A DNA stretch of 64,000 nucleotides from a bacterium (GTDB lineage: Bacteria; UBP7; UBA6624; JBBIMK01): contig JBBIMK010000009.1 of NCBI GenBank assembly GCA_037444445.1, forward strand, positions 6-64,005, in the 5' to 3' direction. The notes beneath the pieces are model-generated. The model searched no databases. It had not been told where the DNA came from and saw nothing but the letters and a program-made list of their open reading frames with translations. Positions within the stretch are counted from its first letter, which is position 1; each line of letters starts with the position of its first letter. The position numbers were made by a program, and so were the translations under genes. Shown here piece after piece: positions 17,696-54,022 of the stretch.

Positions 17696-17738
17696 TTCGG
17701 TTTTACCGAAGGATTGAAAGATGTAGCCACTTATGCAC

Positions 17739-17766: not shown

Positions 17767-17802
17767 AATCCATTGCAAGATGACAGCGGAGGTGGTTTTA
17801 TC

Positions 17803-19389: not shown

Positions 19390-19490
19390 ACTTCTTATCC
19401 CACCCTCATCCCCTACCTCTTCCCATAAGTCCTGCCCACAGAAAAGGTCGTCTCTATTTCAGCCATTCTTGTGTGTAAGGTATTAGAAGA

Positions 19491-22572: not shown

Positions 22573-22616
22573 TCTCCCTGGGAGTGAAAAGATGCGGAGA
22601 ACGAAGGCTTCTTTCT

Positions 22617-22865
22617 TCAGTGTTCTATATCCTCTCGGGCTTCCCAGTAAGGGCAGTAGAAGGGATGGTCCTGAAGGAGCACCCGTCCATCAGAGTTTCT
22701 CATCACCGGCTCCATCATCGGATATTCCTCTCGCTTCCATCCTAAAAGATGGCAGGTTTCCTCTACACACAAAGTATCCTCCAGCCCTTGAACAGCATAC
22801 CCGCGCTCTTGAATCTCAAAATGTCTGCAGTTGATGCAGTGCTGAAGGATGGGTTTCATACCCAT
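22617..22865 (-). CDS. Small cysteine-rich protein (possible metal-binding), translationally coupled to the FBP aldolase/phosphatase gene
   Basis: 82 aa with Cys at CxxC (CINC), CVEETC, CPY. Its ATG overlaps the upstream TGA (TGATGG). Function unknown. Confidence 0.4.
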   Translation of the reverse strand: MGMKPILQHCINCRHFEIQERGYAVQGLEDTLCVEETCHLLGWKREEYPMMEPVMRNSDGRVLLQDHPFYCPYWEAREDIEH

Positions 22866-23965: not shown

Positions 23966-24497
23966 CCGGCATCCCTCCTTTCGTTCTTCGTCCATACTCA
24001 TTATAACAAATTGTGGATGAGCGTTCGCAGTAACCCGCCCGAGATTTTTCCTCACTCTATGAAATGAAACTTTATCCCGACCCACTCGTGATTCCTGAAA
24101 CCAGGTATGTCATTTTCTGATTATTCCTATTGTCTACTTCCTGAATTTCGTGGTTGAGGATATTCCTCACCTCCTTTCCATAAGAGGAATGGAAGAATAC
24201 GCACGAGGGATTTTACCTGACCATTTGACTTTGGAATAATTTTGTAGTCATATTATCGTGCTCATGCTATGAGATTTGATAAGGGAAAGAGGAAGCCTTT
24301 TATGACAATGAGGGGGCAGGGAGAAAGTGGTAGGGTGCCGGGTTTTATCTCCTCCTTATGCCTTTGCTTTTCTATATCTACCCCCCCCCGTATAATCGCC
24401 TTTTCAACCCTTTCTGCTGGCTCATCCCTAAAATTCCTCTCTTTTTGGGAACTTTCTGGCAAAAAAGGAAGTCCACTTTATCAGGAGGTGGTAAAAT

Positions 24498-32457: not shown

Positions 32458-32466
32458 TTCTTTGCC

Positions 32467-33669
32467 TCAAACGGTTCCCCCGGCGCCCGCAGGGGGCTGG
32501 GGCTGCTCTTCTATCCGCAAAGTCACCAGTCGGAACACACCGCCCCGCCGAATGAAAAATTCCACCGAGTCCCCCACTGACATACTCCGAATCATCTTCC
32601 GAAGTTCAAAGGCATCTTTGTATACTTTCCCGTTAACGGAGTAAATCACATCCCCGGCGGCAAGCCCCGCCTGCTCCGCCGGCGAGCCCGGAAAAACCCC
32701 CTTGATTTTTACCGGATATTTCATTCCCTTGTAAAATTCATCTAATCTCAGAATCTCTTCCTTGATATAACGCTGAATATCCTGCTGTGGATTAAACCCC
32801 TGCTCTACACCGGGCCAGCCACCGATATAAGTAGGATTCCTCTCCTGAGGGGTCCAGAAGATGAAGAGCCCTGCCCACGGGTAAATCACCCGCCCGTATT
32901 TTAAGATGTCTTCCGCACTCTTCTTCGCATCGTTGATGGGGTAGAAAAGATTTTGTGCCTCCATCGCACTGGAACCCCAGGAGTTAATCCCAATCTGCTC
33001 GCCCCGGGCATTAAAAGTGGCTCCCCCGCTGTTACCGGCATTGATGGTGGCCGTGGATTGAATTATCCAGGTGAGTTCCTTACCATAGTCCGGATTATTG
33101 AAAACATCCTCCGCACTCATCAGCGGAAATGGATATTCAAAATCCTTCACAATACCCACCGTTACAGTGTTCACCAGCTGGAACTCTTTGAGCCGGAATC
33201 CCGGGTTGAATTGCTCAATCATAAATCCTAAGGAGGCATCGCCGGGAGAGCCAATGGCGAAAACCAGGTCATTTTTCTGAATCTTCTCAGAATCCGCCAG
33301 GTCTACATACGGGAAGACTCTGGGTTCCGGGGTGATGATTTTCACCAGGCCGAAATCCACCTTCACATTAGTGCCCACCACTTTCCCGGGAAGCACCTCC
33401 CCATTATCCAGAGTAATATCTACGAGTTTAGCGGAGGTGACCACATGCCAGTTGGTGTAGATATAGCCATCCGGCGAGACGATGGAGCCGCTTCCTCCAC
33501 CCCCCCCTGCTCCACCGGGGCTCCGATGTAACACCCGAACCATGGCAGGCTTCACTTTCGCCACCACCGGCGTCAGGTCCATCGTCGCTATCCCTTCCGC
33601 TCCCTGCTCCTCCGTTGCTTCCAGCGACAGCACCATAAAAGAAAGCAAAAGGATAGAAAGTTTTTTCAT
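32467..33669 (-). CDS. htrA: HtrA/DegP-family serine endoprotease with PDZ domain (catalytically intact)
   Basis: Signal peptide MKKLSILLLSF. His box YTNWHVV, Asp box VDFGLVKI, Ser box GNSGGATF, C-terminal PDZ. The ATG at 33669 overlaps the upstream stop (ATGA). Confidence 0.8.
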   Translation of the reverse strand: MKKLSILLLSFMVLSLEATEEQGAEGIATMDLTPVVAKVKPAMVRVLHRSPGGAGGGGGSGSIVSPDGYIYTNWHVVTSAKLVDITLDNGEVLPGKVVGTNVKVDFGLVKIITPEPRVFPYVDLADSEKIQKNDLVFAIGSPGDASLGFMIEQFNPGFRLKEFQLVNTVTVGIVKDFEYPFPLMSAEDVFNNPDYGKELTWIIQSTATINAGNSGGATFNARGEQIGINSWGSSAMEAQNLFYPINDAKKSAEDILKYGRVIYPWAGLFIFWTPQERNPTYIGGWPGVEQGFNPQQDIQRYIKEEILRLDEFYKGMKYPVKIKGVFPGSPAEQAGLAAGDVIYSVNGKVYKDAFELRKMIRSMSVGDSVEFFIRRGGVFRLVTLRIEEQPQPPAGAGGTV

Positions 33670-34706
33670 CTTTTCATCCCTCCTTTCCACTCGGCGATGG
33701 TCACATCTCGCTCAAGGATGCGGCCATCCCGCCAGATTTTCACTGAAAAAGTATCCCCGATATTCAACTGATTCACAGGAATCCAGAAGTCCTGAGGCAG
33801 GGTAAGAGATTTCCCCCCCAGTTCCAGCAGGAAATCGTTGGCACGAATCCCCGCTTTATCGGCTGGACTCCCCTCATCTACGAAAGTAACAAATAGTCCA
33901 TAATCATACGGGTATCCGTAGCGGGTTCGCTGGGTGTCATCCACCACCAGCAAAGATACCCCGGTCCAGGGGCGGGCGAATCGCCCCTTCTCCACTATCT
34001 CCTTCACCACTCTCCGCACCGTATTCACCGGAATGGCAAAGTGCAAGTATAATTCCTTATATTGCTGACGCAGGAAAGTAAGAACCCCCACCACTTCTCC
34101 TCGGAAATTCAAAAGAGGTCCCCCCTGCATTCCGTAGGAAATAGGGGCATCCGTTTGAATAAAGGTAGTCACTCCACCTTCCGCCCAGGGTCCCGCGGTG
34201 GGCAGTGCAGAAAGTATCCCGAAAGAAGGTGTGAACAGCCCATTTGAACTCACACCGACGGCAATCAGAGGCTCACCCACTCTCGGTGATTCGTTCTCGG
34301 GCAGGAAAGGAACCGCGGTCAGTTTCTCCGCCCGGATGCGAACCACTGCCACATCCGTCGGCTCATCCATTCCCAACAGCACCCCCTCATAACTTTTCCC
34401 ATCTGAAAGAATCACCTGGATATAACGGGCATACTTCAAGGTTTGAGCCGTCGTGAGTATATATCCCTTTTTGTCATCAAAAATGAATCCAGAGCCTACT
34501 TCCGTAAGGGTTGCGTCACCCAGAATCCCTCGCTTACGCTCTAAAAAACGAACCTTCACCTGCACCAGAGCCGGTAACACTCCGTTGGAAATATCATTCA
34601 TCCGCTGGGCATAAGGATGTATTTCCCGGGGCACGGTGGTGCCGAAAAGGAACACCATACAGACCCCCCCCACCAGTCCAGCCATTTTCAGCCTGAGTCC
34701 TTTCAC
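33666..34706 (-). CDS. HtrA/DegP-family pseudo-protease with PDZ domain (His and Ser replaced)
   Basis: The His box reads LTTAQTL (His to Gln). The Asp box PTDVAVVRI is retained. The Ser box reads GMQGGPL (Ser to Gln). Signal peptide and PDZ domain are present. Confidence 0.7.
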   Translation of the reverse strand: MKGLRLKMAGLVGGVCMVFLFGTTVPREIHPYAQRMNDISNGVLPALVQVKVRFLERKRGILGDATLTEVGSGFIFDDKKGYILTTAQTLKYARYIQVILSDGKSYEGVLLGMDEPTDVAVVRIRAEKLTAVPFLPENESPRVGEPLIAVGVSSNGLFTPSFGILSALPTAGPWAEGGVTTFIQTDAPISYGMQGGPLLNFRGEVVGVLTFLRQQYKELYLHFAIPVNTVRRVVKEIVEKGRFARPWTGVSLLVVDDTQRTRYGYPYDYGLFVTFVDEGSPADKAGIRANDFLLELGGKSLTLPQDFWIPVNQLNIGDTFSVKIWRDGRILERDVTIAEWKGGMKR

Positions 34707-40338: not shown

Positions 40339-41460
40339 TTATTCTTCTAAACCGGCGATCCCGCCTTTGAACTCGGTTCGTGCTTTCCTCAACGAGCGCT
40401 GGCGGACGAAAAGTTTGAAATCGTGTGGGCTGGAAGCCGCATTTAATGCGGTCTCATAGGTGATTTTCCCCTCCGTATATAACTGATACAGGTGCTGGTC
40501 AAAAGTCTGCATCCCCTCAAACTCATCCTCTTCCATAGCCTGGCGGATGAGGGAAAGGTCTTCCCCTTCCTGAATCAATTCTCGGATTCTTGCCGTGGCG
40601 ACCATAATTTCCATAGCGGGGATGCGTCCCCCTCCCACCATAGGCAGTAGTCGCTGGCAGAGAATGCTCTCCAGGGTAGTGGCAAGCATTATCCGAATCT
40701 GGTTCTGAAACTCTGGTGGGAAGTATTCCACAATCCGGTTCAAAGTTTGAACCACATCCATCGTGTGGAGTGTGGTCATCACCAATCTCCCGGTGATGGC
40801 CGCCGTGATAGCCGCCATAATGCTTTCCCGGTCCCGCATCTCTCCAATCATAATGGCATCCGGGTCCTCCCGCAGAATGGTGCGGAGAGCGGAAGCAAAG
40901 TCCGAGGTGTCCAGCCCCACTTCCCGCTGGTTGATGATAGCCTTTTTATCGTAGAACACATACTCAATGGGGTCTTCCACACAGATGATGTGATACGGCT
41001 TGTGAAGATTGATGTGCTCAATCATAGTGGCGAGAGTGGTGGACTTCCCGCTTCCCGTGGTTCCAGTAACAATAATCAGCCCCCGGGGTCGCAGAGAGAG
41101 CTGCGCCAGCAGGGGGGGAAGGTTGATCTCTTCAAAGGTGGGGATGCGAGTTTTCACATGGCGAATAGCAAAGGCGAGGGTTCCTCTCTGGCGGAAGAAG
41201 TTCACTCGGAAGCGCCCCTCAATATCCGGCGCCCGATAGGAGAAGTCCAGTTCATCCCGCTCTTCCAGGAGATGTTCCCGCTTGGCAGTCAGGAGGGTTC
41301 GCCCCGCCGCTTCCAGGTCCTCTTCCGTCAGGATAGGCAGGTCCGTAGGTTCCAGAATCCCATCAATCCGAAGATAGGGAGGGCGTTCAAACCCCAGATG
41401 AAGGTCTGATGCCCCCCGCTCCACCATCATTCGGAGCAAATCTCTGATGTCTATCGGCAT
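40339..41460 (-). CDS. pilT: Type IV pilus retraction ATPase PilT
   Basis: PilT N-terminal, Walker A GLIIVTGTTGSGKSTTLA, Asp box, His box. 373 aa. Confidence 0.9.
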   Translation of the reverse strand: MPIDIRDLLRMMVERGASDLHLGFERPPYLRIDGILEPTDLPILTEEDLEAAGRTLLTAKREHLLEERDELDFSYRAPDIEGRFRVNFFRQRGTLAFAIRHVKTRIPTFEEINLPPLLAQLSLRPRGLIIVTGTTGSGKSTTLATMIEHINLHKPYHIICVEDPIEYVFYDKKAIINQREVGLDTSDFASALRTILREDPDAIMIGEMRDRESIMAAITAAITGRLVMTTLHTMDVVQTLNRIVEYFPPEFQNQIRIMLATTLESILCQRLLPMVGGGRIPAMEIMVATARIRELIQEGEDLSLIRQAMEEDEFEGMQTFDQHLYQLYTEGKITYETALNAASSPHDFKLFVRQRSLRKARTEFKGGIAGLEE

Positions 41461-41510
41461 TCCTCATCGCCCCCTTTGCGTTTCATCTTCATTTTAATTA
41501 TACTCTATTT

Positions 41511-41549
41511 ATAAAAATCAGGGGGGTCTCCTTCAGGAGGAGACCCCCC
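41511..41549 (-). terminator. Rho-independent terminator after the first pilin gene
   Basis: On the minus strand: GGGGGGTCTCC tcctgaa GGAGACCCCCC (11-bp GC stem) followed by TGATTTTTAT. Confidence 0.6.
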
Positions 41550-41589
41550 CATTATACGGGCGCCCCACAGAATTGGAAATGAACTTTCT

Positions 41590-42684
41590 TTACTGTTCTA
41601 CGGTGCCGCCGGTGGCTTGCTCGGTTCCAGCGGAGTAGTAAACCACGACGCCGTCATAACGACCATCCTGGTTGGGTGTGCTCACATCCGTGGCTCGGGC
41701 AACCCCTGGTGCAGGAACAAAGGCCACATTGGGTATCTCCGCCACGCCCAGGAGTGTGCCCTGAGAGCTCACTCCACCATAGCCCGGCTCATTTAACCAA
41801 ATCGAGCCCGGGATAAAAGCGTTAGGATTCTGACGGCATCCGAACCTGTCTACCACCGTGCCTGACAGGGTGCCAAACTCTGTGGGCAGACCGTTTAGTC
41901 CACCGTTTGGATTTCGTGTCCCCCAGCAGTGCAGGACATCCTTCCCCACAGTGCGGACCGAGCCATACCCAGCCAGCAGGAAGTGGTCAATAGAGAATGG
42001 CCTCATAATGCCTCCGGTGGTGCCTAACTGGCGGATAATCCCCGGCGTTACCCCGTAAGCCCGATAGGCGAACTCACCCGGAATCCAGTCCACCGTCTGG
42101 GTGTTATCATCCCCCATGAAGTAGTAAATTACCTGCTGTTGACCAGTGGCTAAAGGGTTATCACTGGGTAACGGACTCAGGGTGCCGCACTGGGAAGTCT
42201 GGGTATTGCAGTTGTTGGTGTCTCGTCCGGGGTAATTCGGGTCCGATAGAATGTTACCCAGAAGATCGCCGCCTTGTGGCCGCGGGGGTAAGCCCGCTCT
42301 CCACCAGCAGCCGAAGCGCGGGTCCAGGTTGGTCCGAATGCAGAGAGAGCTTCCGTCCTTCATAAATGGATTCCGATGGTAAGAAGTTTGATACCCGTAG
42401 AAAATTAAGGGGTCCATGGGCTGTGCAGTAGCGAGAGCAGCCCACCCTTGCCCATTGGTCCAGGAAGCCACATCCCCACCGTAAATATAGTTCGGATATA
42501 GGCCATCCTGATCCGTGGCGTATCGCTCCAGGGATATCTGGATGGCGTGGACGGAGGACTTGGTTTGCACCTCCAGCGCCTTGTCCTTCGCCTTGATGAA
42601 GTTGGGAAGGGCAAGGGAAACCAGTATCCCGATGATGGTGATGACCACCAATAACTCAATGAGGGTAAACCCTCTACGAATCAT
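41590..42684 (-). CDS. Type IV pilin-like protein with class III prepilin signal and a large (about 300 aa) Cys-rich globular domain (candidate major pilin)
   Basis: N-terminus MIRRGFTLIELLVVITIIGILVSLALPNF (G-F-T-L-I-E cleavage/methylation motif, Glu+5). A strong terminator follows immediately downstream. Confidence 0.75.
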   Translation of the reverse strand: MIRRGFTLIELLVVITIIGILVSLALPNFIKAKDKALEVQTKSSVHAIQISLERYATDQDGLYPNYIYGGDVASWTNGQGWAALATAQPMDPLIFYGYQTSYHRNPFMKDGSSLCIRTNLDPRFGCWWRAGLPPRPQGGDLLGNILSDPNYPGRDTNNCNTQTSQCGTLSPLPSDNPLATGQQQVIYYFMGDDNTQTVDWIPGEFAYRAYGVTPGIIRQLGTTGGIMRPFSIDHFLLAGYGSVRTVGKDVLHCWGTRNPNGGLNGLPTEFGTLSGTVVDRFGCRQNPNAFIPGSIWLNEPGYGGVSSQGTLLGVAEIPNVAFVPAPGVARATDVSTPNQDGRYDGVVVYYSAGTEQATGGTVEQ

Positions 42685-42817
42685 AAAAACACCTCCTTTT
42701 TTCCGTCAGGGAGAAAAGGAAGCCCGCTTTTTCAGGGAGAACCCTGTGGGGCGCCCTTTCTTTTTTATCTCTCTTCAATGCAGGCTTCCCTTCCTCTCTG
42801 CACGGAATTTTTATTCC

Positions 42818-43987
42818 TTACTTCAGTTCCCGTTTGGGCTCCTTATCCAATCCACCGTAAACCAGGGTGATAATTTGGTCAGGCGTGCCATCAGGGCCAC
42901 TTCCACTGGGTCCCACCTCATCTCCAGGCTTCAGGGGCGTAATGGTATAGGTGCACTGCCAGGTACTTGGCGGGACTTTGTAGAAGGGGACATTCATCGG
43001 GTCTGGCTCAAAGGAGAAATATCCCGTGAGAAACCCGTGAGCACCGCCGAAGGAGGTCCAACACCAACCCCCCGCACCCGGTGGTTCACAGCAGGAGCGG
43101 TGCATATAATCGTAGCCCAGGGTTTTGATAGAGCCGAAGCCCACGAGAACATATCCGCAGACGGCGTGGGAAAGGATTCGGGCCGCCGGTAGGCTACCCG
43201 TGTTGTTCAAGGCTTCCAGATGGGCATCCACGGTCTCACCGTCGCAGAAAACCGGGTGATAAAAGAACTGACCCGGCACATCCATGCTCGGAGGACCATA
43301 CTGCTGACGATAGCCGGACATGTCATTTGCCCACAAATCCGTCCACACCGATTCGCCTTTCCCCCAGCCGAGGTCGAACATAAGGTTGCCATATCTGCCT
43401 CCCACGGCGTAACCAGGGCTGTAGAGTTGAACATAAGGGGACCCCGCAGCCCAGACGCTGTTGATGTTTGGCGGTATGAACGGATTCTTCGGATACTCGC
43501 TCAGATAGCCGAACATCAACAGCATGTCCATGCAGACTTCCTTGCTCGGGGAGTTGGGACCCCGATACTCCGGAACTCTCTGCTTCAGGGTTCCCAGTTC
43601 AGGCAGACAGTAAGGCCGGTTGGTGTTGCAATCCACAAAGTCCGGCGGGTTTAGCCAACTGCCATCGTAATCCAGGAAGGCAGATTCACCGGCGTTCGTT
43701 CCCGGATTGCATCCGGAGGAACTAGCGTATGGTCCTCCGTCTGCACTGGCGATATTGAACTCCTGGTCACCTCCCGTGACTACCTGTGGATAGAGCCCCG
43801 CATTTTCCACAGCGTAGCGCTCCAGTGCCATCTGAATGATGTGGATGTTGGCTTTGATCTGCGTTTCCTTCGCCTTATCCCGCGCCCGTATATAGTTGGG
43901 TAAGGCGATAGAAACCAGAATTCCCAGAATCACCATAACCACCAGTAACTCAATAAGCGTGAAACCTCGAATCATTCGGGATTTCAC
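42818..43987 (-). CDS. Type IV pilin-like protein paralog (389 aa)
   Basis: N-terminus MKSRMIRGFTLIELLVVMVILGILVSIALPNYIRARDKAKE is nearly identical to the paralog at 44082-45221. Large Cys/Trp/Tyr/Gly-rich C-terminal domain. Confidence 0.75.
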   Translation of the reverse strand: MKSRMIRGFTLIELLVVMVILGILVSIALPNYIRARDKAKETQIKANIHIIQMALERYAVENAGLYPQVVTGGDQEFNIASADGGPYASSSGCNPGTNAGESAFLDYDGSWLNPPDFVDCNTNRPYCLPELGTLKQRVPEYRGPNSPSKEVCMDMLLMFGYLSEYPKNPFIPPNINSVWAAGSPYVQLYSPGYAVGGRYGNLMFDLGWGKGESVWTDLWANDMSGYRQQYGPPSMDVPGQFFYHPVFCDGETVDAHLEALNNTGSLPAARILSHAVCGYVLVGFGSIKTLGYDYMHRSCCEPPGAGGWCWTSFGGAHGFLTGYFSFEPDPMNVPFYKVPPSTWQCTYTITPLKPGDEVGPSGSGPDGTPDQIITLVYGGLDKEPKRELK

Positions 43988-44081
43988 CGCGTATCACCTC
44001 CTTTCAGATTCTTGTTGTTCTCTTTCATTTTTTGGGTTCCTTCGTTTTACCGCCTTTCATCCTCGGATAACGAAGTAGCCT

Positions 44082-45221
44082 TTACGGCGGTGGCCCCTGA
44101 CCTGAGGCTTCGCATCCGGGCTTCCGGGTGTCCATGAGCACCTTCACATCCACGCCGGAGGAGAGAACGGTGATGACACCGTCTGGCAACCCGTCAGGAC
44201 CGTTATACACGCAGTAAGCATCGCGTGCGGAGGCATAGTTCAAGTCCCCCGGTTCCAGTTTGCAATCCCCCTCCGCATCATCACAGGCGAGAGTGCTCTC
44301 TGCGTAATCGCCCAGGACATCATAGACATCGTGCCCGCGATTCCAGCTAGCACCATAGCCTGCCAGATGATAGCCCACCACCTTTGCCTGCATAAAGAAC
44401 CCTGTCCAGACATAATTCGAGTCTGGCTGTATGGGGTAGTAGTAGAAGTTGCCCGGTAGGTAATTGTGGAGGATTTTGTTGGAGGTTTGAGCCTGGGCGG
44501 GGTCGCAGCCGGGGCTCCCTAACTTGCATCGGATGGAATAGGGTGGGTGCCCTGCCCAGCCTCGGGCGGTAACGGTAAGCCCTGATACAGTATTATTCAA
44601 TTGCCCCCCGCGCTGGCAAGCGCCTTTGCCTAACCCATAAGCCCCGGAAGGACCGCAGATGGCTCCGTAAACCCCCTCGCTGACATCCCACATAAAGGAG
44701 TTGGTAGGTCCGCCCACATGTCGACAAGAGGCGTCGTCGGCTGATTGACACCGATTGTTGGGGAAAACCGTGCTGTAGTTGCAGAACACATCGGCGTTGC
44801 CCCCCATGTTATTTGGCCAGCGCGGGTGTGGACACTCCCGCACCTGAAACTGGATTCCGGTGCCCGCCGCTGACATAAAGGGATTGTTAGGGTACCGATT
44901 GAGGTAGCCGTATTCCATGAGTGGGTCCCCATCCCCGCAGGGCTGGCTGATCCTCGGGCAGTATATCGGGGCAAAGGGGGAAGCATTCCAGTCGTCGTAA
45001 TTCCCCCCCAACAGCCACTTGGGAAAGGCCCCGTCATTATCCGAAGCATACCGTTCCAGCGCAGTGCGGATAATGTGCAGGTTCGCCTCCACCTGCTTCT
45101 CTCGCGCTTTGTCCCGCACCCTCGTGTAGTTGGGCAACGCAATGGCCACCAGTATCCCGATGATGACCATGACCACCAGTAACTCAATCAGTGTGAATCC
45201 ACGAATCATTCGGGATTTCAC
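44082..45221 (-). CDS. Type IV pilin-like protein paralog (379 aa)
   Basis: N-terminus MKSRMIRGFTLIELLVVMVIIGILVAIALPNYTRVRDKAREKQ. Its 5' UTR, including the AAAGGAGGTGATA RBS, is near-identical to that of the neighbouring paralog. Confidence 0.75.
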   Translation of the reverse strand: MKSRMIRGFTLIELLVVMVIIGILVAIALPNYTRVRDKAREKQVEANLHIIRTALERYASDNDGAFPKWLLGGNYDDWNASPFAPIYCPRISQPCGDGDPLMEYGYLNRYPNNPFMSAAGTGIQFQVRECPHPRWPNNMGGNADVFCNYSTVFPNNRCQSADDASCRHVGGPTNSFMWDVSEGVYGAICGPSGAYGLGKGACQRGGQLNNTVSGLTVTARGWAGHPPYSIRCKLGSPGCDPAQAQTSNKILHNYLPGNFYYYPIQPDSNYVWTGFFMQAKVVGYHLAGYGASWNRGHDVYDVLGDYAESTLACDDAEGDCKLEPGDLNYASARDAYCVYNGPDGLPDGVITVLSSGVDVKVLMDTRKPGCEASGQGPPP

Positions 45222-45285
45222 CTGATATCACCTCCTTTGAATTGGATTTGAAAGTGTTTCCGGTTCTTTTTCATTTTTTCATCCC

Positions 45286-46509
45286 TTATTTGAACAGGTC
45301 AATGATGTGGAAAATGGGGAGGTACAGGGCGATGACAATCGTTCCCACCACGGCGCCAATGACAAGAATCATCACGGGCTCAATCAGGCTGGCAAGCCCT
45401 TTGATGGTGGCATCAATCTCCACATCGTAGAAATCGGACAGTTTATACAGCATATCCTCCAGGTTTCCCGCCTCTTCGCCTACGGCCACCATGTGGTAGA
45501 CCATAGGGGGGAAAATCCCGGTTCGCTTCATCGCAGGTGCAATCCCTTCCCCTTCTCGCACCCGGTCCCGAATGTAGTGCACACTCTGAGTGACCACATA
45601 GTTATCGGCGGTATCCGAAACCACTTCCAGTGCCTCCAGGATTGGTACCCCACTCTGGGTGAGTGTGCCTAAGGTTCTGGAAAAACGAGTGATAGCCACT
45701 TTCTTGGACAGAGGACCCAGAATCGGAAGACGGATGAAAAGAGGGTCCAGCAAGCGATGCCCCCACCGACTCTTCCGAAACCGCCAGAAAATCATCACTC
45801 CCACAAAAGGAGATGGAAGCACCCACCACCAGTTTAAGACGATAAAGTCGGAAATTTCTACCAGCTTCTGCGTGAGCGCTGGAAGAGGCACATTCCCGGA
45901 AGAAAGGCTCTCATACAGGCTGGCAAACTGTGGCACGATGTAAATTAAAATCCCCATCGTAATCAGGAATGCAATCACGGTAACGAAGGAAGGGTAAGCC
46001 ATGGCGGAGCGAATCTTATGCCGCAAATCCAGTTCCTTCTCAAAGAACATGGCCATACGCTCCAGAATGGCTTCCAGAACGCCACCGATTTCCCCCGCAT
46101 GCACCATACTTACGAAGAAGTTAGAGAACGAACGGGGGTGCTTCTTCATGGCTCTCGCCAGGGTTTCTCCGCTCTCCACATCCAGCCGCAACTGATGCAC
46201 AATCCGCTTCAGGTTGGTGTCCTGGGTCTGCTCCTCTATCACATCCAGGGCGTTGGCAAGGGTAAGACCCGCCGAAATCAAAAGGGAGAACTGACGGGAA
46301 AAAACGGTGAGGGACTTTAATCCGACACCACGGAAGCGACCCATGAAAGCCCCCGCACTCCTTCCCCCTTTCTTTTCCCGAATGCGAACCACCCAGTATC
46401 CCTGGCGGCGCAGTGCATCCACCACCGTCTGGGGATTATCCGCCTCCATTACCCGCGAGAAGGTCTTCCCCCCCGCTCCCCTCGCAGTAAATACAAATGT
46501 CTTCGCCAT
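45286..46509 (-). CDS. pilC: Type IV pilus inner-membrane platform protein PilC (GspF family)
   Basis: Two GspF repeats and 3 TM segments. 407 aa. Confidence 0.9.
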   Translation of the reverse strand: MAKTFVFTARGAGGKTFSRVMEADNPQTVVDALRRQGYWVVRIREKKGGRSAGAFMGRFRGVGLKSLTVFSRQFSLLISAGLTLANALDVIEEQTQDTNLKRIVHQLRLDVESGETLARAMKKHPRSFSNFFVSMVHAGEIGGVLEAILERMAMFFEKELDLRHKIRSAMAYPSFVTVIAFLITMGILIYIVPQFASLYESLSSGNVPLPALTQKLVEISDFIVLNWWWVLPSPFVGVMIFWRFRKSRWGHRLLDPLFIRLPILGPLSKKVAITRFSRTLGTLTQSGVPILEALEVVSDTADNYVVTQSVHYIRDRVREGEGIAPAMKRTGIFPPMVYHMVAVGEEAGNLEDMLYKLSDFYDVEIDATIKGLASLIEPVMILVIGAVVGTIVIALYLPIFHIIDLFK

Positions 46510-46604: not shown

Positions 46605-47747
46605 TCATGGGCTTTCCATTGCCTCCCGGGATGCCATCTCCAGTGCCTCTTCCACACCGCCGGCAGGACCTGCCGCGATGAGACGCTGGAGTTCCTTCGG
46701 ATTATGGGCGGCAGCCATGGCAGTCTCCAGGGTTATCCTCCCGGAGAAATAATAATCTCGCAGACACTGGTCCATCGTCTGCATTCCTAATTTGGTGTGG
46801 GTCATCATGGTGGAGTGAATCTGATAGATTTTTTGCTCCCGAATCAGGTTCCGGACCGCCGGGATGTTGAGCATCACTTCAAAGGCAGCCAGGCGCCCCT
46901 TCCCATCCGCTGTGGGCAGAAGTTGCTGGGATAAAACGACCTCCAGGGCATTGGCTAACTGCGCCCGAACCTGGGATTGCTGATGTGCAGGAAAAACATC
47001 AATGATGCGGTCAATGGATAACGGAGCATTGATGGTGTGGAGGGTGGAAAAAACCAGGTGTCCCGTCTCTGCAGCGGTAATGGCGGTAGAAATAGTTTCC
47101 AGATCCCGCATCTCCCCCACCAGAATCACATCCGGGTCCTGACGGAGCACCCTTCGCATGGCTTCCGCGAAGGAGAAAGTATGGTCGCCCACCTCCCGCT
47201 GATTCACATTGGCTTTTCCATGCGGAATCACATATTCAATCGGGTCTTCCATTGTGACCATGTGAAGAGGCTTGGTCTGGGAAATGACATTGAGCATGGC
47301 AGCCAGGGATGTGGTTTTCCCGCTCCCCGTGGGACCGGTGACCAGAATCAGCCCCCGAGGAAGCATAATTTTCTCCTTCATAATCGGAGGAAGCAGGAGT
47401 TCATCCATGGTGGGAATGCGGCTGGGCAGCGCCCGAATAGCGAGGGTCACTCCCGTGCGGGTCAGGGATAGATTGCACCGAAACCGACCCAATCCCTCCT
47501 GCTCGTAGGAAAAGTCCAATTCCCTCTCGTTCTCAAACCGCTTCCTCCTCTCCTCCCGAATCATACTGTAAGCCAGTGCACGGGTATCCTCCGCGTCCAG
47601 CACCTCGTATTCTGTCAGGCGGACCAGGTTCCCCAGCACCCGAATCGTGGGAGGAAGGCCCGGCGTCAGATGCAAATCCGTGCCGTTGACTTCATGAACC
47701 TTTACCAGCAGGTCCAGAACAGTATATTCGCCCACTCCCTTCGGCAT
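46605..47747 (-). CDS. pilT: PilT/PilU-family type IV pilus ATPase (second paralog)
   Basis: Walker A GLILVTGPTGSGKTTSLAAM and PilT-type Asp/His boxes. 380 aa. Confidence 0.88.
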   Translation of the reverse strand: MPKGVGEYTVLDLLVKVHEVNGTDLHLTPGLPPTIRVLGNLVRLTEYEVLDAEDTRALAYSMIREERRKRFENERELDFSYEQEGLGRFRCNLSLTRTGVTLAIRALPSRIPTMDELLLPPIMKEKIMLPRGLILVTGPTGSGKTTSLAAMLNVISQTKPLHMVTMEDPIEYVIPHGKANVNQREVGDHTFSFAEAMRRVLRQDPDVILVGEMRDLETISTAITAAETGHLVFSTLHTINAPLSIDRIIDVFPAHQQSQVRAQLANALEVVLSQQLLPTADGKGRLAAFEVMLNIPAVRNLIREQKIYQIHSTMMTHTKLGMQTMDQCLRDYYFSGRITLETAMAAAHNPKELQRLIAAGPAGGVEEALEMASREAMESP

Positions 47748-47765: not shown

Positions 47766-49568
47766 TTACGAAATCAGGGGAGCCAGTTTCCGCGGCGCCT
47801 CCGCCAGACCGGGAACCCTCCGCTCGGGAACCCGTTCAGGTATTAACTCCAGAGCCCGTTCCTCGGGTGGAACCACCCGGAGCACTTCCTCCAGCGTCGT
47901 AATTCCCTCCAGGGCTTTGCGAACACCGTTTTCGTACAGGGTCCGCATTCCCTCCCGCATCGCCTGGCTCTTGATTTCCATGTGAGAAGCGCCCGACAGA
48001 GCCATTTCCCGGATCCGGGGGCTCATCACCATAATTTCAAACAGGGCGGTTCGGCCCTTGTAGCCAATCCCGTTGCAGAACTTGCACCCCACCTTGTTAT
48101 AAAGAATCACTTCCTCCGTTTCCTTCCGCCCCAGAACCTTCATCACCCCCGCTATCTTCTCCATCTCGTACGAAGAGGGATGGTAGGATTTCTTGCAATA
48201 AGGGCAGAGGACGCGAATCAAACGCTGGGCAACCGCCGCTATCAGTGTGGCATTCACCAGGTAGGGCTCCACGCCGATGTTCACCAGACGAATGATGGAT
48301 GAAGGTGCATCATTGGTGTGAAGGGTAGAAAAAACGAGGTGACCGGTCAGGGAAGATTGAATCGCCATCTCCGCCGTTTCGTAGTCCCGAATTTCCCCGA
48401 TCATCATGATGTCCGGGTCGGAGCGGAGAAAGTGCCGGAGCGCCGAGGCGAAAGTCACTCCCACCTTCGTGTTCACCTGCACCTGATTCACCCGGTCAAT
48501 TTCATACTCCACCGGCTCTTCAATGGTCATCACATTCACTTCATCGGTGGCAATTTTCATCAAAGAAGCATACAGCGTCGTGGTTTTCCCGCTCCCCGTA
48601 GGACCCGTGAGAAGGATAATCCCGTGAGGGCGGGAAATCAATGAGTTCCACACCTTCATCTCGTCCTCCGAGAACCCCAGGTCCACCAGGCTCATCAACC
48701 CCACCGCCCGGTCCAGTATTCGCATGACAATTTTCTCCCCGTACACCGTAGGAACGGAAACCACACGCATATCAATCTCCCGGTCGGGCATCTGGAAAAA
48801 AATCCTCCCATCCTGAGGCTTTCGTCGCTCCGCCGTGTCCATCCCTGCAAGAATCTTGACCCGGGCCAGCGTAGCCGCTATGGCTTGCTTCGGGATTTCC
48901 ATCTGTGGTATCAAAATGCCGTCCACCCGGTACCGAACCTTCATTTTTTCTCTCCGGGGTTCCAGGTGGATGTCCGAAGCCCGGGAATTTACCGCTCCCG
49001 TAATCAGCGTGTCCACCAGCTTGACAATCGGGGCATCTTCTACCTCAAACTCTTTGGAAATCTGCTTGAGTTCCAGAAGGTCCAGCCCCTTTTCCCGCCG
49101 CTCCGCCACAAACTCTTTGATGGCTTTCTGCGCAGCGTGCTTCACCCCGTAGTGCTGTTCAAAGGCGTGCTTTAAAGCATCCAGGGTGGTGATAGCCGGG
49201 CGAACCTCATATCCAGTCGCCAGCCGTATGTCATCAATCGCAAGAAGATTCAGAGGGTCCACCATCGCCAGCACAAGCGTATTCCCCTCCAGTCGCACCG
49301 GAAAAACCTGATGCCGAAGAATCAGGTCGGGAGTAATCACCCCTTTCGTAATCAGCGCCTGGTCCACGGGCGTCTCAAACAGGTCAATCACCTCCACACC
49401 CAGTTGATGGGAGAGGGTCCGGGTGATATCCTCCGGGGAAGCCATCGCCAGTTCCACAATCACCTCTCCCAGGCGCTTCCCCGTTTCCTGCTGGACTTTC
49501 AGGGCACGCTCCAGGTCCTCGGCAGTAAGTAACCCTGCCTCCACCAGCAAATCACCTAATCTCTTCAT
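47766..49568 (-). CDS. pilB: Type IV pilus assembly (extension) ATPase PilB/GspE with N-terminal MshEN-like domain
   Basis: N-terminal GLLTAEDLERALKVQQETGKRLGEVIVEL, Walker A GIILLTGPTGSGKTTTLYA, and a tetracysteine motif CPYC...CKFC. Confidence 0.9.
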   Translation of the reverse strand: MKRLGDLLVEAGLLTAEDLERALKVQQETGKRLGEVIVELAMASPEDITRTLSHQLGVEVIDLFETPVDQALITKGVITPDLILRHQVFPVRLEGNTLVLAMVDPLNLLAIDDIRLATGYEVRPAITTLDALKHAFEQHYGVKHAAQKAIKEFVAERREKGLDLLELKQISKEFEVEDAPIVKLVDTLITGAVNSRASDIHLEPRREKMKVRYRVDGILIPQMEIPKQAIAATLARVKILAGMDTAERRKPQDGRIFFQMPDREIDMRVVSVPTVYGEKIVMRILDRAVGLMSLVDLGFSEDEMKVWNSLISRPHGIILLTGPTGSGKTTTLYASLMKIATDEVNVMTIEEPVEYEIDRVNQVQVNTKVGVTFASALRHFLRSDPDIMMIGEIRDYETAEMAIQSSLTGHLVFSTLHTNDAPSSIIRLVNIGVEPYLVNATLIAAVAQRLIRVLCPYCKKSYHPSSYEMEKIAGVMKVLGRKETEEVILYNKVGCKFCNGIGYKGRTALFEIMVMSPRIREMALSGASHMEIKSQAMREGMRTLYENGVRKALEGITTLEEVLRVVPPEERALELIPERVPERRVPGLAEAPRKLAPLIS

Positions 49569-49604: not shown

Positions 49605-51857
49605 TCATCGTTTTTCCCGTCTCATTTTCATTGTAGCATCTTTTTTATTTCTGTCAACTCTTACATCCAGGTGCCTTATACCAGCCTGCAGTGCCACCAG
49701 GGATTCGGGGGATGGAGGCTCTCCCCCATAAAAATACTTCTCCACACAGGTTAACAGCCCGTGAATTTCCCGCTCCGACGATGGTGAAACCCGGAGGACA
49801 GAAACCAGATACTCCCGATAGGTTGCCGAAGGCGAGCGCGGGAACCCGGCTTTCTTTTCCACCCTCCCCACCAGCGATAACAGCCTCTCCCGGAAAGAGG
49901 GCGAACGCGGAAAACGCCCACCCATAGATAAAATGACAGAATGGATATGGTGATAAGCATAAGGGAAAAAAAGAGGCAGCAGGAACGCAAGGATTAGAGG
50001 AACTTTTACCCGGTTGAACCAATTCCCAATAGGCCTCGCAAGCGTAGATACATAATACGACAGCGTGGCGGCGAGGAAAGCCAGACGGTCCTGAAAATAA
50101 TTTCCCGGGCTGAGAGGGTTCACATCCCGGCTGAGACCCCCCACACCACCCGGGTTTGTCACGGAAACATTCTGCAAAACCTCAGGCGTGGGGTCCATCG
50201 TTATCCAGGCATAATTTGGGATATACGCTTCCACCCACGCATGGGCATCCTTATCCTTCAGCGTAAAACTCCCCTGCAAGAAATCATACTCCCCGCCCAT
50301 ATACCCACCCACCACTCGCGCAGGGATTCCCACCGCTCTTAACAGCACAGCCATCGCACTCGCATAAAACTCACAGTACCCACTCCGCCCCTCAAACAAG
50401 AAATAATCCACCGCATCCCGGTCCCTCGGAATCCTCCCCAATTCCAGCTTGTACTGGTAACGCGGCGAATTCAGGAATCTCCGTATCGCCTCCATCTTCT
50501 CATAAGCGGAAGCAAAGCCGTCCGTAATCTCGTGCGCCAGCGCATAAACCCGCTCAGGAACCTCAGGCAATTCCAGATACCGCCTCAGGACCATGGCCTC
50601 CCTGGAGGGTAGTGAATCCACCCGATAAATTTTCAGGGTCGTCTCATCCGTCTTCACCACATACGACTCTACGGAGTAAGAATACCCCGGGTTTAACACA
50701 AAAGAGGTTCGCAACGACCCCTCCCGGTCCGACGACACGAAACTACCCTCCTGGCGGTGAAATGAAAACGGTAACCTCACCGAAACGGGCTCCCACAGGG
50801 CAAACAGCACATTCGGGTGAGGTTTCAACACCCGAAAAGTAGTTCTCACCCTTTCATATTCGTAATCCCGCTCCTCATCAGGCTCTATCAGAGGAATATA
50901 CCCCTTTTCCGAGTCAACCGAATGAGGTGTCAGGGGCGAATGCGAGGGGATTTCCCATCCCCTGCCCGTATAAGTCGTGAACACCAGCCCGCGGAAATAC
51001 CCCGCAAAAGGAGCAGAAACCTCCATCGCAGGCTCCTCCGACAGGTGGATACTTTCCCCCGATGCCAGTTGCAAGTAAGGCGAGAAGCCCGAATACCGCA
51101 CATAAGCGGGAGGCAGGTCATCCGAAAAATTTAACGGCACAAGACTTCCAATGGTTCCGCCGGCAGAGGTGGGTCCAGCCAGCAACACCAGAGACTCACC
51201 CCGGGGAATCTTCGCTACCATCAAGAACACAATAGATGAAAGCAGAAAAGCCCATAGAAAAATGTTCAACCCCAGGCGGAAGAAGACGGGCACAGTCCAT
51301 TTCTCTCGCTTCTCCAGATTTTTCTGAAAACCTCCCCGTTGGATAAACATAGTGGATTCCCCAAAGATGACCAGTAGCAGGCTTGCCAGCCCCAGAATCG
51401 CAAAAAGTATCCCCGTAAAATTATAAAGGGATAGACCCCCGGTGAACAGCGACACCGCTACAGGAAACGACAGGAAAAATAGCACATCCTGAAGGGTAAA
51501 TAACCGGAGGAGAAAAACTATCAACAGCCAGGGAACCAGCCGGCCGATATAGAGATAAAAGTTACCAAAATCCTTCACCCCCTGATAAGTATAGTAAGTG
51601 AACAAAAGGAAGGAACAAATTTCTCCCAGTATCCGAACCCACTTGTGCAGTGAGCGAGGAATGAACAGGCTGAGAAAAAAACTGCCGTTCATCAGGGCAT
51701 AGAGAAGGATTGCCTCATAGGGCTTGTAGGAAAGCGCCAGAAACACCAGCGCAAAACACAAAGAGGAAATCACCCATACCAGCACATACTGGAGGGTGGA
51801 AATGGGCATCTGCCACAGCCCTTTCCCCCTTTGTTTATCCAGAATAGAGTAAGTCAT
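49605..51857 (-). CDS. Transglutaminase-like membrane protein (DUF3488 N-terminal TM domain + transglutaminase core; TgpA-like)
   Basis: Multi-TM N-terminal half. Transglutaminase Cys-His-Asp core with GYCEFYASAMAVLLRAVGIPARVVGGY. Start set at the ATG at 51857, just after the DUF58 gene stop. Confidence 0.75.
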   Translation of the reverse strand: MTYSILDKQRGKGLWQMPISTLQYVLVWVISSLCFALVFLALSYKPYEAILLYALMNGSFFLSLFIPRSLHKWVRILGEICSFLLFTYYTYQGVKDFGNFYLYIGRLVPWLLIVFLLRLFTLQDVLFFLSFPVAVSLFTGGLSLYNFTGILFAILGLASLLLVIFGESTMFIQRGGFQKNLEKREKWTVPVFFRLGLNIFLWAFLLSSIVFLMVAKIPRGESLVLLAGPTSAGGTIGSLVPLNFSDDLPPAYVRYSGFSPYLQLASGESIHLSEEPAMEVSAPFAGYFRGLVFTTYTGRGWEIPSHSPLTPHSVDSEKGYIPLIEPDEERDYEYERVRTTFRVLKPHPNVLFALWEPVSVRLPFSFHRQEGSFVSSDREGSLRTSFVLNPGYSYSVESYVVKTDETTLKIYRVDSLPSREAMVLRRYLELPEVPERVYALAHEITDGFASAYEKMEAIRRFLNSPRYQYKLELGRIPRDRDAVDYFLFEGRSGYCEFYASAMAVLLRAVGIPARVVGGYMGGEYDFLQGSFTLKDKDAHAWVEAYIPNYAWITMDPTPEVLQNVSVTNPGGVGGLSRDVNPLSPGNYFQDRLAFLAATLSYYVSTLARPIGNWFNRVKVPLILAFLLPLFFPYAYHHIHSVILSMGGRFPRSPSFRERLLSLVGRVEKKAGFPRSPSATYREYLVSVLRVSPSSEREIHGLLTCVEKYFYGGEPPSPESLVALQAGIRHLDVRVDRNKKDATMKMRREKR

Positions 51858-53103
51858 CCTCCTGTGATAAAGTATACACCCTGGCTCCCCCGGATGCAAC
51901 CTGCTGGAGAAACTTCTGCACAGGGTCCCGAGGGAGAGAGAGAGGAGAAATCTTGCCTGAATCCGCCCCCCCACCGGAACGAAAAGCCTCGGGATTGATG
52001 TAAAAAAAGGATACAGAAGCCACAACACAACTGAGGTGATGGAGAATCGGAATCATTTCCTCCCTGATGCTGGAGGTGAATAAAAGGAGATGAAGGTTGG
52101 GAGAACGAAGATGAGACAGGAGGCGGAGAAGCACGGTAGAGAAGGGGTTAGAGCCTTTTCCCTGAATGCAGGCTAATTTTTGGAAGGCCACAAGAAGGGA
52201 GGCAGGTCCCGAAGCAAGGGTGAAATCCATTCCATCCGGCTCATCAAAATAAACACTCCCCAGTGCACCCGTAGAGAAATAGTAATGCGCCACGGAAGCG
52301 GCAGAGCGAATAGCCACCTCCAGGGTATTCCGGGGACCATCCCCCAGAATTTGATGGGGGTCCACATCCACCACGATTAAGAAATTCCCCCCCATTTCCC
52401 TGAGGAACTGTTTCAGGACCGGGAAACCCAATCGGGCGGAGGTGAGCCAGTGAATATTCTTAAATGGGTCCCCCGGGACATACGGACGCAGTCCGATGAA
52501 TTCATCCCCCGCTCCTTCCAGGGATACGCTGGGTCGCAGAGGAAGCGGTGAGCCCCCGCCCGCTTCCAGGGGAAAAGAGGTGAGAATGAGAAACCGAGGA
52601 TACACGGTGAATGCCCGTTCTATCCGGAATATCTCCTGCACCTGATATAACTTCATCGGGTCCTGCGATTCCAGAACTATAGTGGAAAACGGATAGATTC
52701 CCCGACGCACACTCCGAAGGCTGAAAGGATAACGCACCTCCTCCCCTTTCTGAATCCGGGCAAGATGAATTTCCAGCGGCGACTCTATATAGGGCGCCTG
52801 AAAACTCACTTTTAACAGAATCTTCTGAAGTGGCGTGTGATTCCGCACCACCACTTCACCCTGAAAACTATGCCCCTCTACATTCCCCTCCGGAACCCGC
52901 AGGTCCACACTCACTCCCCGGAGACTCCGAGTCACCCAGATGAAGGCGATGATGTGTAAAGCCACGAAGAAAGATAGCACCGCATCCAGCGTTTCCACAG
53001 CAGCACTCGTAACAGACAGCACAAAGATAAAAAGGGCAATGAGCAAAAGAGAAATCCCCCGGGGTGCTATGAAATACCGGGTCCTATGCGATGGGAACTT
53101 CAT
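51835..53103 (-). CDS. DUF58 domain protein (vWA-like; MoxR partner)
   Basis: DUF58 signature GLRPYVPGDPFKNIHWLTSARLG, N-terminal TM helices. Positioned between the MoxR and transglutaminase genes. Confidence 0.8.
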   Translation of the reverse strand: MKFPSHRTRYFIAPRGISLLLIALFIFVLSVTSAAVETLDAVLSFFVALHIIAFIWVTRSLRGVSVDLRVPEGNVEGHSFQGEVVVRNHTPLQKILLKVSFQAPYIESPLEIHLARIQKGEEVRYPFSLRSVRRGIYPFSTIVLESQDPMKLYQVQEIFRIERAFTVYPRFLILTSFPLEAGGGSPLPLRPSVSLEGAGDEFIGLRPYVPGDPFKNIHWLTSARLGFPVLKQFLREMGGNFLIVVDVDPHQILGDGPRNTLEVAIRSAASVAHYYFSTGALGSVYFDEPDGMDFTLASGPASLLVAFQKLACIQGKGSNPFSTVLLRLLSHLRSPNLHLLLFTSSIREEMIPILHHLSCVVASVSFFYINPEAFRSGGGADSGKISPLSLPRDPVQKFLQQVASGGARVYTLSQEDDLLYSG

Positions 53104-54022
53104 GAAGAAGAGCCGTGAGAACCTCTTTCTCCGTAAGACCGGAGACCTTCAGATGAGGCTTCAGATACACCCTGTGGGAGAGCAGTGGGACAAAAAGTTC
53201 TTTCACATCGTCCGGAATCACATACTCCCTGCCCCGAAGAAAAGCCAGAGCCTGAGAAGTGCGTAATAGCCCCAGGGCACCCCGAGGACTGGCCCCCAGC
53301 AGAAAATCCCCGTGCCTGCGAGTGGCATCCCCTAACGCCACGATGTATTCCAGAATGGAACCCGACACCTTAATATGCCGTATCGCCCTCTGTAGTTCCA
53401 GAATCTCTTCCTTCCCTACCACTGGAGTTATCGTGGTGATAGGGTGCTGAAGCATCTGGTCTAACAACATTTGCACCTCTTTCTCCGGGGGGAGATAGCC
53501 CAGGGAAATCCGCATCATAAACCGGTCCAGTTGTGCCTCCGGTAGCTTATACACCCCTTGATATTCCACCGGGTTCTGCGTGGCAACAACGAAAAAGGGG
53601 TCATCCAGAGGTGTGGTAATTCCCTCCACCGTCACTTGATGTTCTTCCATCGCTTCCAGGAGAGAGGATTGAGTCCGAGGCGTTGCCCGATTGATTTCAT
53701 CCGCCAGGAGAATATGAGTGAAGATAGGCCCCTTTTTGAAGTCAAAATCACTGGTTTTCTGATTATAAATGTAAGCGCCCGTGATGTCCGAAGGCAAGAG
53801 GTCTGGCGTCAATTGAATCCGCCGAAAGGTGAGTTGGGTGGAAAGGGCAAGGGCTTTGGCCAGTGTGGTTTTCCCGGTCCCGGGCACATCTTCAATCAGA
53901 AGATGTCCACCCGCAAGGAAGCAAACGAGGCACTGCTCCACGACAGAGTCTTTCCCGATAATCACCCGCTGAACAGAATTTTTCAGCTGGGAAGCGAGAG
54001 CGAATCCCTGGTCCCAGTTCAA
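53084..54022 (-). CDS. moxR: MoxR-family AAA+ ATPase
   Basis: Walker A GHLLIEDVPGTGKTTLAKALA, Walker B LLADEINRA, 312 aa. Confidence 0.9.
   Translation of the reverse strand: MNWDQGFALASQLKNSVQRVIIGKDSVVEQCLVCFLAGGHLLIEDVPGTGKTTLAKALALSTQLTFRRIQLTPDLLPSDITGAYIYNQKTSDFDFKKGPIFTHILLADEINRATPRTQSSLLEAMEEHQVTVEGITTPLDDPFFVVATQNPVEYQGVYKLPEAQLDRFMMRISLGYLPPEKEVQMLLDQMLQHPITTITPVVGKEEILELQRAIRHIKVSGSILEYIVALGDATRRHGDFLLGASPRGALGLLRTSQALAFLRGREYVIPDDVKELFVPLLSHRVYLKPHLKVSGLTEKEVLTALLHEVPIA

Follow-up and report, generated by a model that had tools for sequence, protein, structure and literature searches.

We analysed a 64 kb stretch of bacterial DNA (the window; contig JBBIMK010000009.1) in which three consecutive genes, here named pil1, pil2 and pil3, encode large type IV pilin-like proteins beside the genes of a pilus machine. 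Open reading frame (ORF) calls together with Pfam and NCBIfam matches gave the minus-strand order pilB-pilT-pilC-pil1-pil2-pil3-pilT2 (Table 1). The array thus sits between pilC and a second pilT, and its members measure 364-389 aa on the minus strand, as the first-pass annotation of this DNA had described. Long plus-strand ORFs inside the pilin genes (42515-43192 and 43220-43654) were regarded as antisense artefacts.

All three proteins carry the canonical prepilin leader that had been proposed for them. The leader/mature junction is MKSRMIRG followed by FTLIELLVV in pil1 and pil2 and MIRRG followed by FTLIELLVV in pil3, and direct reading of the sequences found Gly-1, Phe+1, Glu5, Gly14 and Pro22 in each. 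PF07963 (Pfam N_methyl) matched the three at 30.3-32.9 bits against a cutoff of 21.2, and TIGR02532 matched them at 33-35 bits against a cutoff of 16.3. Two marks of the type IV pilin superfamily are present: the class III signal (Gly-1, Phe or Met+1, Glu5 and a stretch of some 20 hydrophobic residues) and an alpha1 helix, roughly 50 residues long, that leads into a head with an antiparallel beta-sheet. A six-frame motif scan of the window found no other ORF with a class III signal. The mature proteins would be 371, 381 and 359 aa long for pil1, pil2 and pil3, and from their sequences we expect them to be processed by PilD and polymerised. Their earlier description as rich in Cys and aromatic residues was only moderately true (Cys counts in Table 1; Phe, Trp and Tyr together 10-12%), and Gly (about 12%) and Pro (7-9%) are likewise abundant. 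Cys positions are mostly kept inside each ortholog group, as expected of exported proteins.

By its sequence matches, the neighbouring machine is of the retractile type IVa kind and no type II secretion system (T2SS), because both PilT proteins exceed the PilT/PilU cutoff and the top NCBIfam match of PilB is type IV-A PilB, albeit at 585 bits and under the equivalog cutoff of 675. PilB also matched the MshE-related cyclic di-GMP (c-di-GMP) motif NF053729 at 66.9 bits against a cutoff of 38, and, given this MshEN-type motif, c-di-GMP may control pilus extension. A gene that adjoins pilB/pilC and a retraction ATPase is typical of type IVa major pilins; this is what we found for the array, and the arrangement is kept in five loci.

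Table 1. Features of the pilin array and its surroundings in the window.
Feature	Coordinates	Strand	Details
pil1	44082-45221	-	379 aa, GTG start, leader MKSRMIRG, 14 Cys; co-evolves with pil2
pil2	42818-43987	-	389 aa, GTG start, leader MKSRMIRG, 10 Cys
pil3	41590-42684	-	364 aa, ATG start, leader MIRRG, 6 Cys; most widespread subtype
pil1 tract shared with pil2 (initiation region, leader and first 16 mature codons, alpha1-N)	45150-45237	-	74/88 nt identical to 43916-44003
pil2 copy of the shared tract (ribosome-binding site, leader, alpha1-N)	43916-44003	-	from sequence comparison with pil1
Stem-loop in pil2-pil3 spacer	42701-42807	-	RNA fold -52.7 kcal/mol, z -3.8, 0/200 shuffles as good
Intrinsic terminator ending the pilin array	41519-41551	-	14-bp stem, 9 G-C pairs, then U-run AUUUUUAUAA
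pilB, extension ATPase with N-terminal MshEN-type c-di-GMP-binding domain	47766-49568	-	Pfam T2SSE 428 bits, MshEN 79 bits
pilT, PilT/PilU-family retraction ATPase	46605-47747	-	TIGR01420 438 bits against cutoff 319
pilC, platform protein	45286-46509	-	Pfam T2SSF 218 bits, two repeats; best NCBIfam match Thermus-type PilC
pilT2, second PilT/PilU-family ATPase	40339-41460	-	TIGR01420 431 bits against cutoff 319; 44% identical to pilT
TgpA-like membrane transglutaminase	49605-52028	-	Pfam Transglut_core, TgpA_N, DUF4129; DUF58 and MoxR upstream
MoxR AAA+ ATPase, DUF58 protein and TgpA-like gene block	49605-54022	-	directly upstream of pilB

Age and concerted evolution of the trio

The complete trio was found at five loci: the window, L084 (JGI 3300010938), L081 (GCA_054402895.1, 'bacterium JZ-2024 1'), L085 (GCA_900174565.1) and L086 (European Nucleotide Archive ERZ24794647). 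The order sugar transferase-MoxR-DUF58-TgpA-pilB-pilT-pilC-pil1-pil2-pil3-pilT2 recurs in the latter four, and for the three of them compared, PilB identity to the window is 96% in L084, 73% in L081 and 56% in L086. The C-terminal domains (C-domains) grouped strictly by gene position. Those of pil1, pil2 and pil3 in the window are 64, 64 and 77% identical to their counterparts in L084 and 49, 43 and 55% identical to those in L081, whereas the C-domains of paralogs are only about 30% identical to one another (33-38% pairwise for the whole proteins). Because the C-domains group by ortholog and the paralogs have drifted this far apart, the triplication is older than the split of the five genomes. 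The first-pass annotation had ascribed the likeness of the two upstream copies to recent duplication or gene conversion, and the first of these does not survive a comparison in which orthologs share 43-77% of their C-domain residues. The triplication is instead ancient, and the paralogs would each have a role that the others do not fill. The pilins of the window and L084 are 67-80% identical, in contrast to 95-97% for PilB, PilT, PilC, PilT2 and GroEL, so that the pilins evolve faster than the machinery, as would be expected of surfaces exposed on a filament.

The pairing extends to L082 and L087, two far more distant genomes in which a gene of pil2 type and one of pil1 type still form a tandem apart from pilBTC; the L082 contig also carries a pil3-type gene at another place. 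A further contig of 827 kb (L089, JGI 3300033153) holds about seven tandem genes of 373-389 aa at 8776-19670 with no pilBTC nearby; five of these roughly seven genes have a recorded N_methyl match, and P0437 alone was shown to be a pil3-type family member. Judging from this array, the family can expand into multi-copy arrays apart from pilBTC genes.

The two upstream genes of the trio resemble each other most at their 5' ends. Both have the same ribosome-binding site (RBS) block AAAGGAGGTGATA, the same GTG start and the same leader of eight residues; TATCACCTCCTTT occurs exactly twice in the window, and so does the motif quoted in the first-pass annotation (43938-43987 and 45172-45221). From -16 to +72 relative to the start codon, 74 of 88 nt (84%) are identical and the differences are synonymous; identity drops to 65% and then 61% deeper in the gene, and is 42% upstream of -17. 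The 5' ends had been called near-identical, which is slightly generous, the longest perfect run being 21 nt (permutation P ~0.04). As these alignments have it, homogenisation of pil1 and pil2 in the window genome is real, yet neither recent nor extensive. A direct repeat of 17 nt that precedes both pil1 and pil2 was also weighed as a common regulatory element and rejected; it lies in purine-rich sequence, is not conserved in pil2 of L084 and is probably due to chance.

We used 11 genomes or contigs that carry both a pil1-type and a pil2-type gene and compared the first 58 mature residues, which make up the whole of alpha1. Over this stretch, pil1 and pil2 of one genome are 69-88% identical, and this within-genome identity exceeded the identity of orthologs between genomes in 48 of 55 genome pairs; the exceptions were pairs of closely related genomes. 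Leader length and sequence likewise follow the genome and not the paralog (MKSRMIRG with GTG in the window lineage, MRKG with ATG in L081 and L085). In L081, pil1 and pil2 share 86 nt of perfect identity, of which 24 nt belong to the 5' untranslated region (UTR) and 50 nt to alpha1, with the leader between them (P<1e-4), and in L085 they share an identical run of 41 nt plus 26 nt of identical UTR (P 0.002). The UTRs of L081 and L085 are unlike one another. Tracts that include the 5' UTR are therefore identical within each of these genomes while the UTRs differ between them, which argues for repeated gene conversion. In L087 (2.4 Mb contig, 10001-12165), the first 39 mature residues of the pil2-type and pil1-type proteins are identical but are encoded with many synonymous differences, which indicates that selection at the protein level also keeps the helices alike. 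Together, these comparisons indicate that gene conversion between pil1 and pil2 is recurrent and old and that protein-level selection adds to it. Gene conversion, which the first-pass annotation had offered as the alternative to recent duplication, is thus the half of that proposal that fits the within-genome likeness and the long tract of L081. The third copy, described there as more divergent, is indeed distinct: pil3 is outside the homogenisation and retains its orthologous N-terminal signature, VVITIIGIL..PNFIKAKDKALE, in all five trio loci.

These patterns also bear on a further suggestion, that the genes encode alternative major pilins that arose by recent duplication and serve antigenic or functional switching. 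The tandem arrangement, the fast evolution of the globular domains relative to the machinery and the leader and RBS shared by pil1 and pil2 would all suit such a function. However, the three genes form stable ortholog groups in a fixed order in five genomes and on further contigs, the low identity of paralog C-domains makes the duplication ancient, and we found no repeats apart from the 5' tract, nor any silent cassettes or invertible elements. Since every paralog persists as its own ortholog group, we consider switching largely refuted and very improbable.

Expression architecture of the array

A strong stem-loop occupies the spacer between pil2 and pil3 in the window (Table 1), and strong hairpins of unrelated sequence were found in the same spacer in L084 (11189-11316), L085 (11228-11336) and L086 (11117-11260); L081 is without one. 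No U-run follows these hairpins, and the pil1-pil2 spacer of the window has no hairpin (z -0.2). From its sequence and position, the pil2-pil3 stem-loop could act as an intercistronic attenuator or an mRNA stabiliser that sets the ratio of pil1/pil2 to pil3. Because hairpins separate pil2 from pil3 and not pil1 from pil2, and because pil1 and pil2 share their initiation region, we read pil1 and pil2 as one expression unit and pil3 as another. This organisation suggests that pil1 and pil2 may be made as a matched pair, with pil3 tuned separately.

The strong terminator that had been reported after the array was readily located (Table 1). The 101-nt stretch around it (41500-41600) folds at -36 kcal/mol (z -2.9), and the hairpin is also present in L084. 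It had been taken as a sign that pil3 is a highly expressed major subunit, but it merely closes the three-gene array. Promoter-like sites before pilB, pilC and pil1 are consensus matches only. At the other end of the operon, the called end of the TgpA-like gene overlaps the called start of pilB by 4 nt in L081 and L085 (MoxR-DUF58-TgpA blocks at 69-4375 and 174-4477, respectively), which suggests co-transcription. The TgpA-like gene, a conserved neighbour in all five trio loci, is thus probably co-transcribed with pilB. Action of the transglutaminase on the pilins would be a candidate functional link.

Globular domain and role of the large pilins

In a search with pil2, about 90 relatives of full length (340-460 aa) were retrieved; they all stem from unclassified metagenomic 'bacterium' records and have N_methyl as their only Pfam domain. 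A family profile built from 76 members, run against 1.84 billion cluster representatives, matched 197 of them at E<=1e-30, and most among the best 150 listed were near full length (320-450 aa). Pil3-type proteins are more numerous than those of pil1/pil2 type, with 571 homologs at E<=1e-10. The C-domain profiles of the pil1/pil2 and pil3 types are homologous throughout (hhalign E 9e-51 over 265 columns), and the three subtypes have the core motifs YGY..YP.NPF, PG.F.Y, L.GYG...G.D and DG..D.V in common, with long variable insertions between them.

Beyond the helix, these proteins resemble nothing curated. The globular domain had no Pfam or NCBIfam match even at E<=10, and all matches were limited to the first ~60 residues. 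The first-pass annotation had allowed that the domains might turn out to be those of pseudopilin or adhesin (minor pilin) families; no such match appeared. Modular pilins (sensu Raynaud et al. 2021) are recognised by a second functional domain linked to the pilin module, and here no second Pfam or NCBIfam domain was detected at E<=10, although an unrecognised module within the large pilins is possible. A sequence-profile search of the PDB matched only the alpha1 helices of pilins, GspG and geopilin. An AlphaFold2 model of pil2, built on the 76-sequence alignment (pLDDT 85.6, pTM 0.87), places the alpha1 helix at 11-61, an irregular but well-predicted segment of about 180 residues at 62-240 and a beta-sheet region at 241-378. 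In this model, pil2 looks like a pilin with a huge alpha-beta loop, as one integrated domain and with no appended module. Foldseek with the pil2 model gave a best E of 2.8 against the PDB; for pil3, whose model is weaker (pLDDT 69.5), the top matches were the pilins CofA and TcpA, at a non-significant E of 1.1-2.9. The globular domain of about 300 residues is therefore an uncurated family, without a Foldseek match, and confined to poorly known lineages. Two candidate relationships were tried and rejected: a hhalign comparison trimmed to the C-domain did set GYL..YP.NPF against the GspG motif gYLrr.P.DP, but membership of the globular domain in GspG was not significant (P 0.033, probability 1.5%), and DUF1559 (PF07596) had no match in the 76 members, its hhalign alignment covering only 35 columns of alpha1-C.

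We consider it probable that pil1-3 belong to the pilin superfamily and are used by the adjacent machine. The reading that we favour, at about an even chance, is that they are the filament subunits of this retractile type IVa-like machine, in which pil1 and pil2 would polymerise together and pil3 would supply a third subunit. It draws on the position of the genes in the operon, the Glu5 present in all three proteins, the lack of a small pilin in this operon at all five syntenic loci, the fast evolution of the globular domains, the conserved Cys residues and the co-evolution of the pil1 and pil2 alpha1 helices. The pilB-pilT-pilC-pilT2 machine would build a type IV filament from the three proteins. 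Gene conversion and protein-level selection would keep the RBS, leader and whole alpha1 of pil1 and pil2 alike in each genome, so that the two might be produced in matched amounts and their helices might pack together in one filament core, while pil3, the third subunit, would be tuned on its own, set off by the hairpin that precedes it and by a different RBS. The product would be a heteropolymeric pilus, thicker than usual, so that the 'wide pilus' suggested in the first-pass annotation is a plausible idea, and the co-assembly, stoichiometry and width of such a filament would follow from this scheme. The formation of a heteropolymeric shaft is, on its own, a more tentative proposal, and we rate it somewhat below even.

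Several observations weigh against this reading. One is size: a survey of 1,955 type IVa major pilins found mature lengths of 42-297 aa with a mean of 141 (PMC11046646), and pil1-3 all lie beyond this range, whereas the very large pilins known so far usually serve as minor or tip subunits (PMC8179133). The window was found to contain neither pilD nor pilMNOPQ nor genes for minor pilins, and a conventional small major pilin may be encoded beyond it. In distant genomes, the pair or the pil3-type genes are not beside pilBTC, and these copies, together with the L089 array, recall multi-copy prepilin-like families. The likeness of the N-termini could partly stem from common PilD/PilC constraints and not from co-polymerisation, and the tract homogenised in the window genome is short, with marginal significance by permutation. 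Expression, processing and polymerisation of pil1-3 are moreover predictions from sequence.

The main rival reading is a different role, in which pil1-3 would be low-abundance minor or tip pilins, as part of a priming or tip complex or as adhesins, and a small major pilin would be encoded elsewhere. GspI-J-K, PilVWX, ComZ and the modular pilins PilB and PilC of S. sanguinis would be the analogues. The very large pilins characterised to date are minor ones, probably placed at the tip (PMC8179133), no surveyed type IVa major pilin is longer than 297 aa (PMC11046646), three distinct, conserved and non-redundant subunits resemble a heterotrimeric tip complex, and our gene survey of this genome covers the 64 kb window. 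Set against this, Glu5 is kept in all three proteins, and the operon holds no small pilin in the five syntenic loci. Tip subunits of the GspK type are not known to have Glu5, and major pilin genes usually sit beside pilBC. The pil2 model, furthermore, is one integrated domain with a huge alpha-beta loop and not a pilin with a grafted module, and pil3-type genes are found in multi-copy arrays. We therefore regard a minor or tip role as somewhat unlikely.

The N-terminal matches raise another possibility, that the pilin scaffold is used for something other than a pilus, either in a secretion endopilus (T2SS-like or Hps-like) or in anchored or displayed binding or enzymatic proteins, as in the archaeal bindosome or the multi-copy DUF1559/H-X9-DG proteins of Planctomycetota. 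The top curated match of the N-termini is indeed GspG (TIGR01710), weak T2SSG matches were found in 11 of the 76 family members, the conserved neighbourhood includes, on its upstream side, a sugar transferase and a glycosyltransferase, and other genomes have multi-copy arrays and copies apart from pilBTC. However, the GspG scores of 46-54 bits are under the cutoff of 88.85 and cover profile positions 1-61 only, which is alpha1 alone, PF08334 is absent from the window proteins, and the likeness of the C-domains to GspG is non-significant, as given above. Nor was homology to PF07596 proteins detectable in the globular part. The pilin genes are also flanked by two genuine retraction ATPases of the PilT/PilU family, and T2SS are not known to have ATPases of this type. 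Such a use of the scaffold is accordingly improbable.

Returning to the filament-subunit reading, its strongest form would be an obligately heteromeric, thick, retractile pilus with a pil1-pil2 repeat unit of ~40 kDa subunits, a fold absent from the PDB, pil3 as a third component and possible modification or cross-linking by TgpA. We consider this form unlikely, but if true it would be a new class of type IV filament, and pil1 and pil2 would be the largest pilins known in a filament shaft. As shaft subunits, they would roughly double the known upper size of filament-forming pilins and would provide a bacterial heteropolymer of strongly diverged subunits whose core helices are matched by gene conversion, and hence a natural experiment on the constraints of alpha1 packing. 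If they are minor pilins instead, the result is more modest, but there would still be an uncurated family of some 200 or more clusters with a confident pil2 model of unmatched fold.

A bulky filament of this kind would also raise the question of how it crosses a diderm envelope. The window encodes LptF/G (60508-61626) and an SLH-domain protein (17773-19389, plus strand) that also has a coiled coil and a weakly porin-like C-terminus, an architecture known from the outer-membrane tethers of deep-branching diderms. These two suggest an outer membrane that the pilus would have to cross. The closest matches of the window GroEL are from the unclassified 'bacterium JZ-2024 1' (77-81%), and named phyla reach only about 68% (Armatimonadota, Firmicutes/Bacillota). 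Elsewhere in the window, three tandem HtrA/DegP-like paralogs (31276-34706, minus strand; Trypsin_2 and PDZ; 393, 407 and 346 aa) adjoin a 943-aa ORF without a Pfam match and a SurA-like chaperone, a cluster also present in L084. An archaeal-type fructose-1,6-bisphosphate aldolase/phosphatase (FBPase_3, 590 bits) lies beside a multihaem cytochrome c554-like protein (21256-24085, minus strand), and the two genes hint at a thermophilic or autotrophic host.

Comparison with known systems

In most respects pil1-3 resemble type IVa PilA/PilE (K02650). They have the short basic leader ending in Gly, the Phe+1, Glu5, Gly14 and Pro22 and the alpha1 of about 50 residues; their genes lie beside pilB/pilC with a PilT present; and their globular domain evolves fast. 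They differ in that there are three subunits and not one, in their size (mature PilA/PilE are 42-297 aa) and in a globular part unmatched to solved pilins. Larger heads are compatible with a filament in at least one case, since the enlarged globular domains of M. xanthus PilA (208 aa) pack into a functional, stiffer filament (PMC11046646).

Filaments of two major subunits are known from the PilE1/PilE2 pilus of S. sanguinis (PMC10628169) and from the archaellum of M. villosus, in which ArlB1 and ArlB2 alternate (PMC8821640). Like pil1 and pil2, these pairs are encoded in tandem and have matching N-terminal helices, for which a common core is proposed or shown, although co-assembly of pil1 and pil2 is at present a prediction. 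PilE1 and PilE2 are close paralogs over their full length, whereas pil1 and pil2 are alike in alpha1 only (69-88%) and their globular parts are about 30% identical.

Large minor pilins such as PilB and PilC of S. sanguinis, Thermus ComZ, GspK and CofB also reach 300-550 aa by adding mass to the pilin scaffold. In these, however, the addition is a recognisable or separate module, grafted or inserted, and the role is a minor or tip one. The proteins described here contain no known domain, have in the model a loop of about 180 residues from alpha1 to the beta-sheet, and include every pilin of the operon, all of them large.

GspG is the best curated family for residues 1-65, and hhalign with a GspG set drawn from other phyla gave 99.5% probability over alpha1 plus the YP motif (residues 8-72). 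By eye, gYLrr.P.DPWG of GspG resembles GYL..YP.NPF, and its Ca-binding loop resembles the C-terminal DG..D. Unlike GspG, the proteins here are nearly three times larger, PilT ATPases are present and other Gsp genes are absent from the operon. Finally, the multi-copy prepilin-like proteins of the Planctomycetota-Verrucomicrobiota-Chlamydiota (PVC) group (PF07596, Verru_Chthon) have a similar size (300-400 aa), a prepilin signal and a GspG-like alpha1 and are sometimes in tandem (compare L089), but pil1-3 scored only 13-23 bits with the Verru_Chthon cassette families against cutoffs of 70-256. Compared with all of these systems, pil1-3 are still members of the pilin family, and what is new is the combination of a size beyond that of surveyed major pilins, an unmatched globular domain, confinement to poorly known lineages and occurrence as a conserved trio with a homogenised pair.

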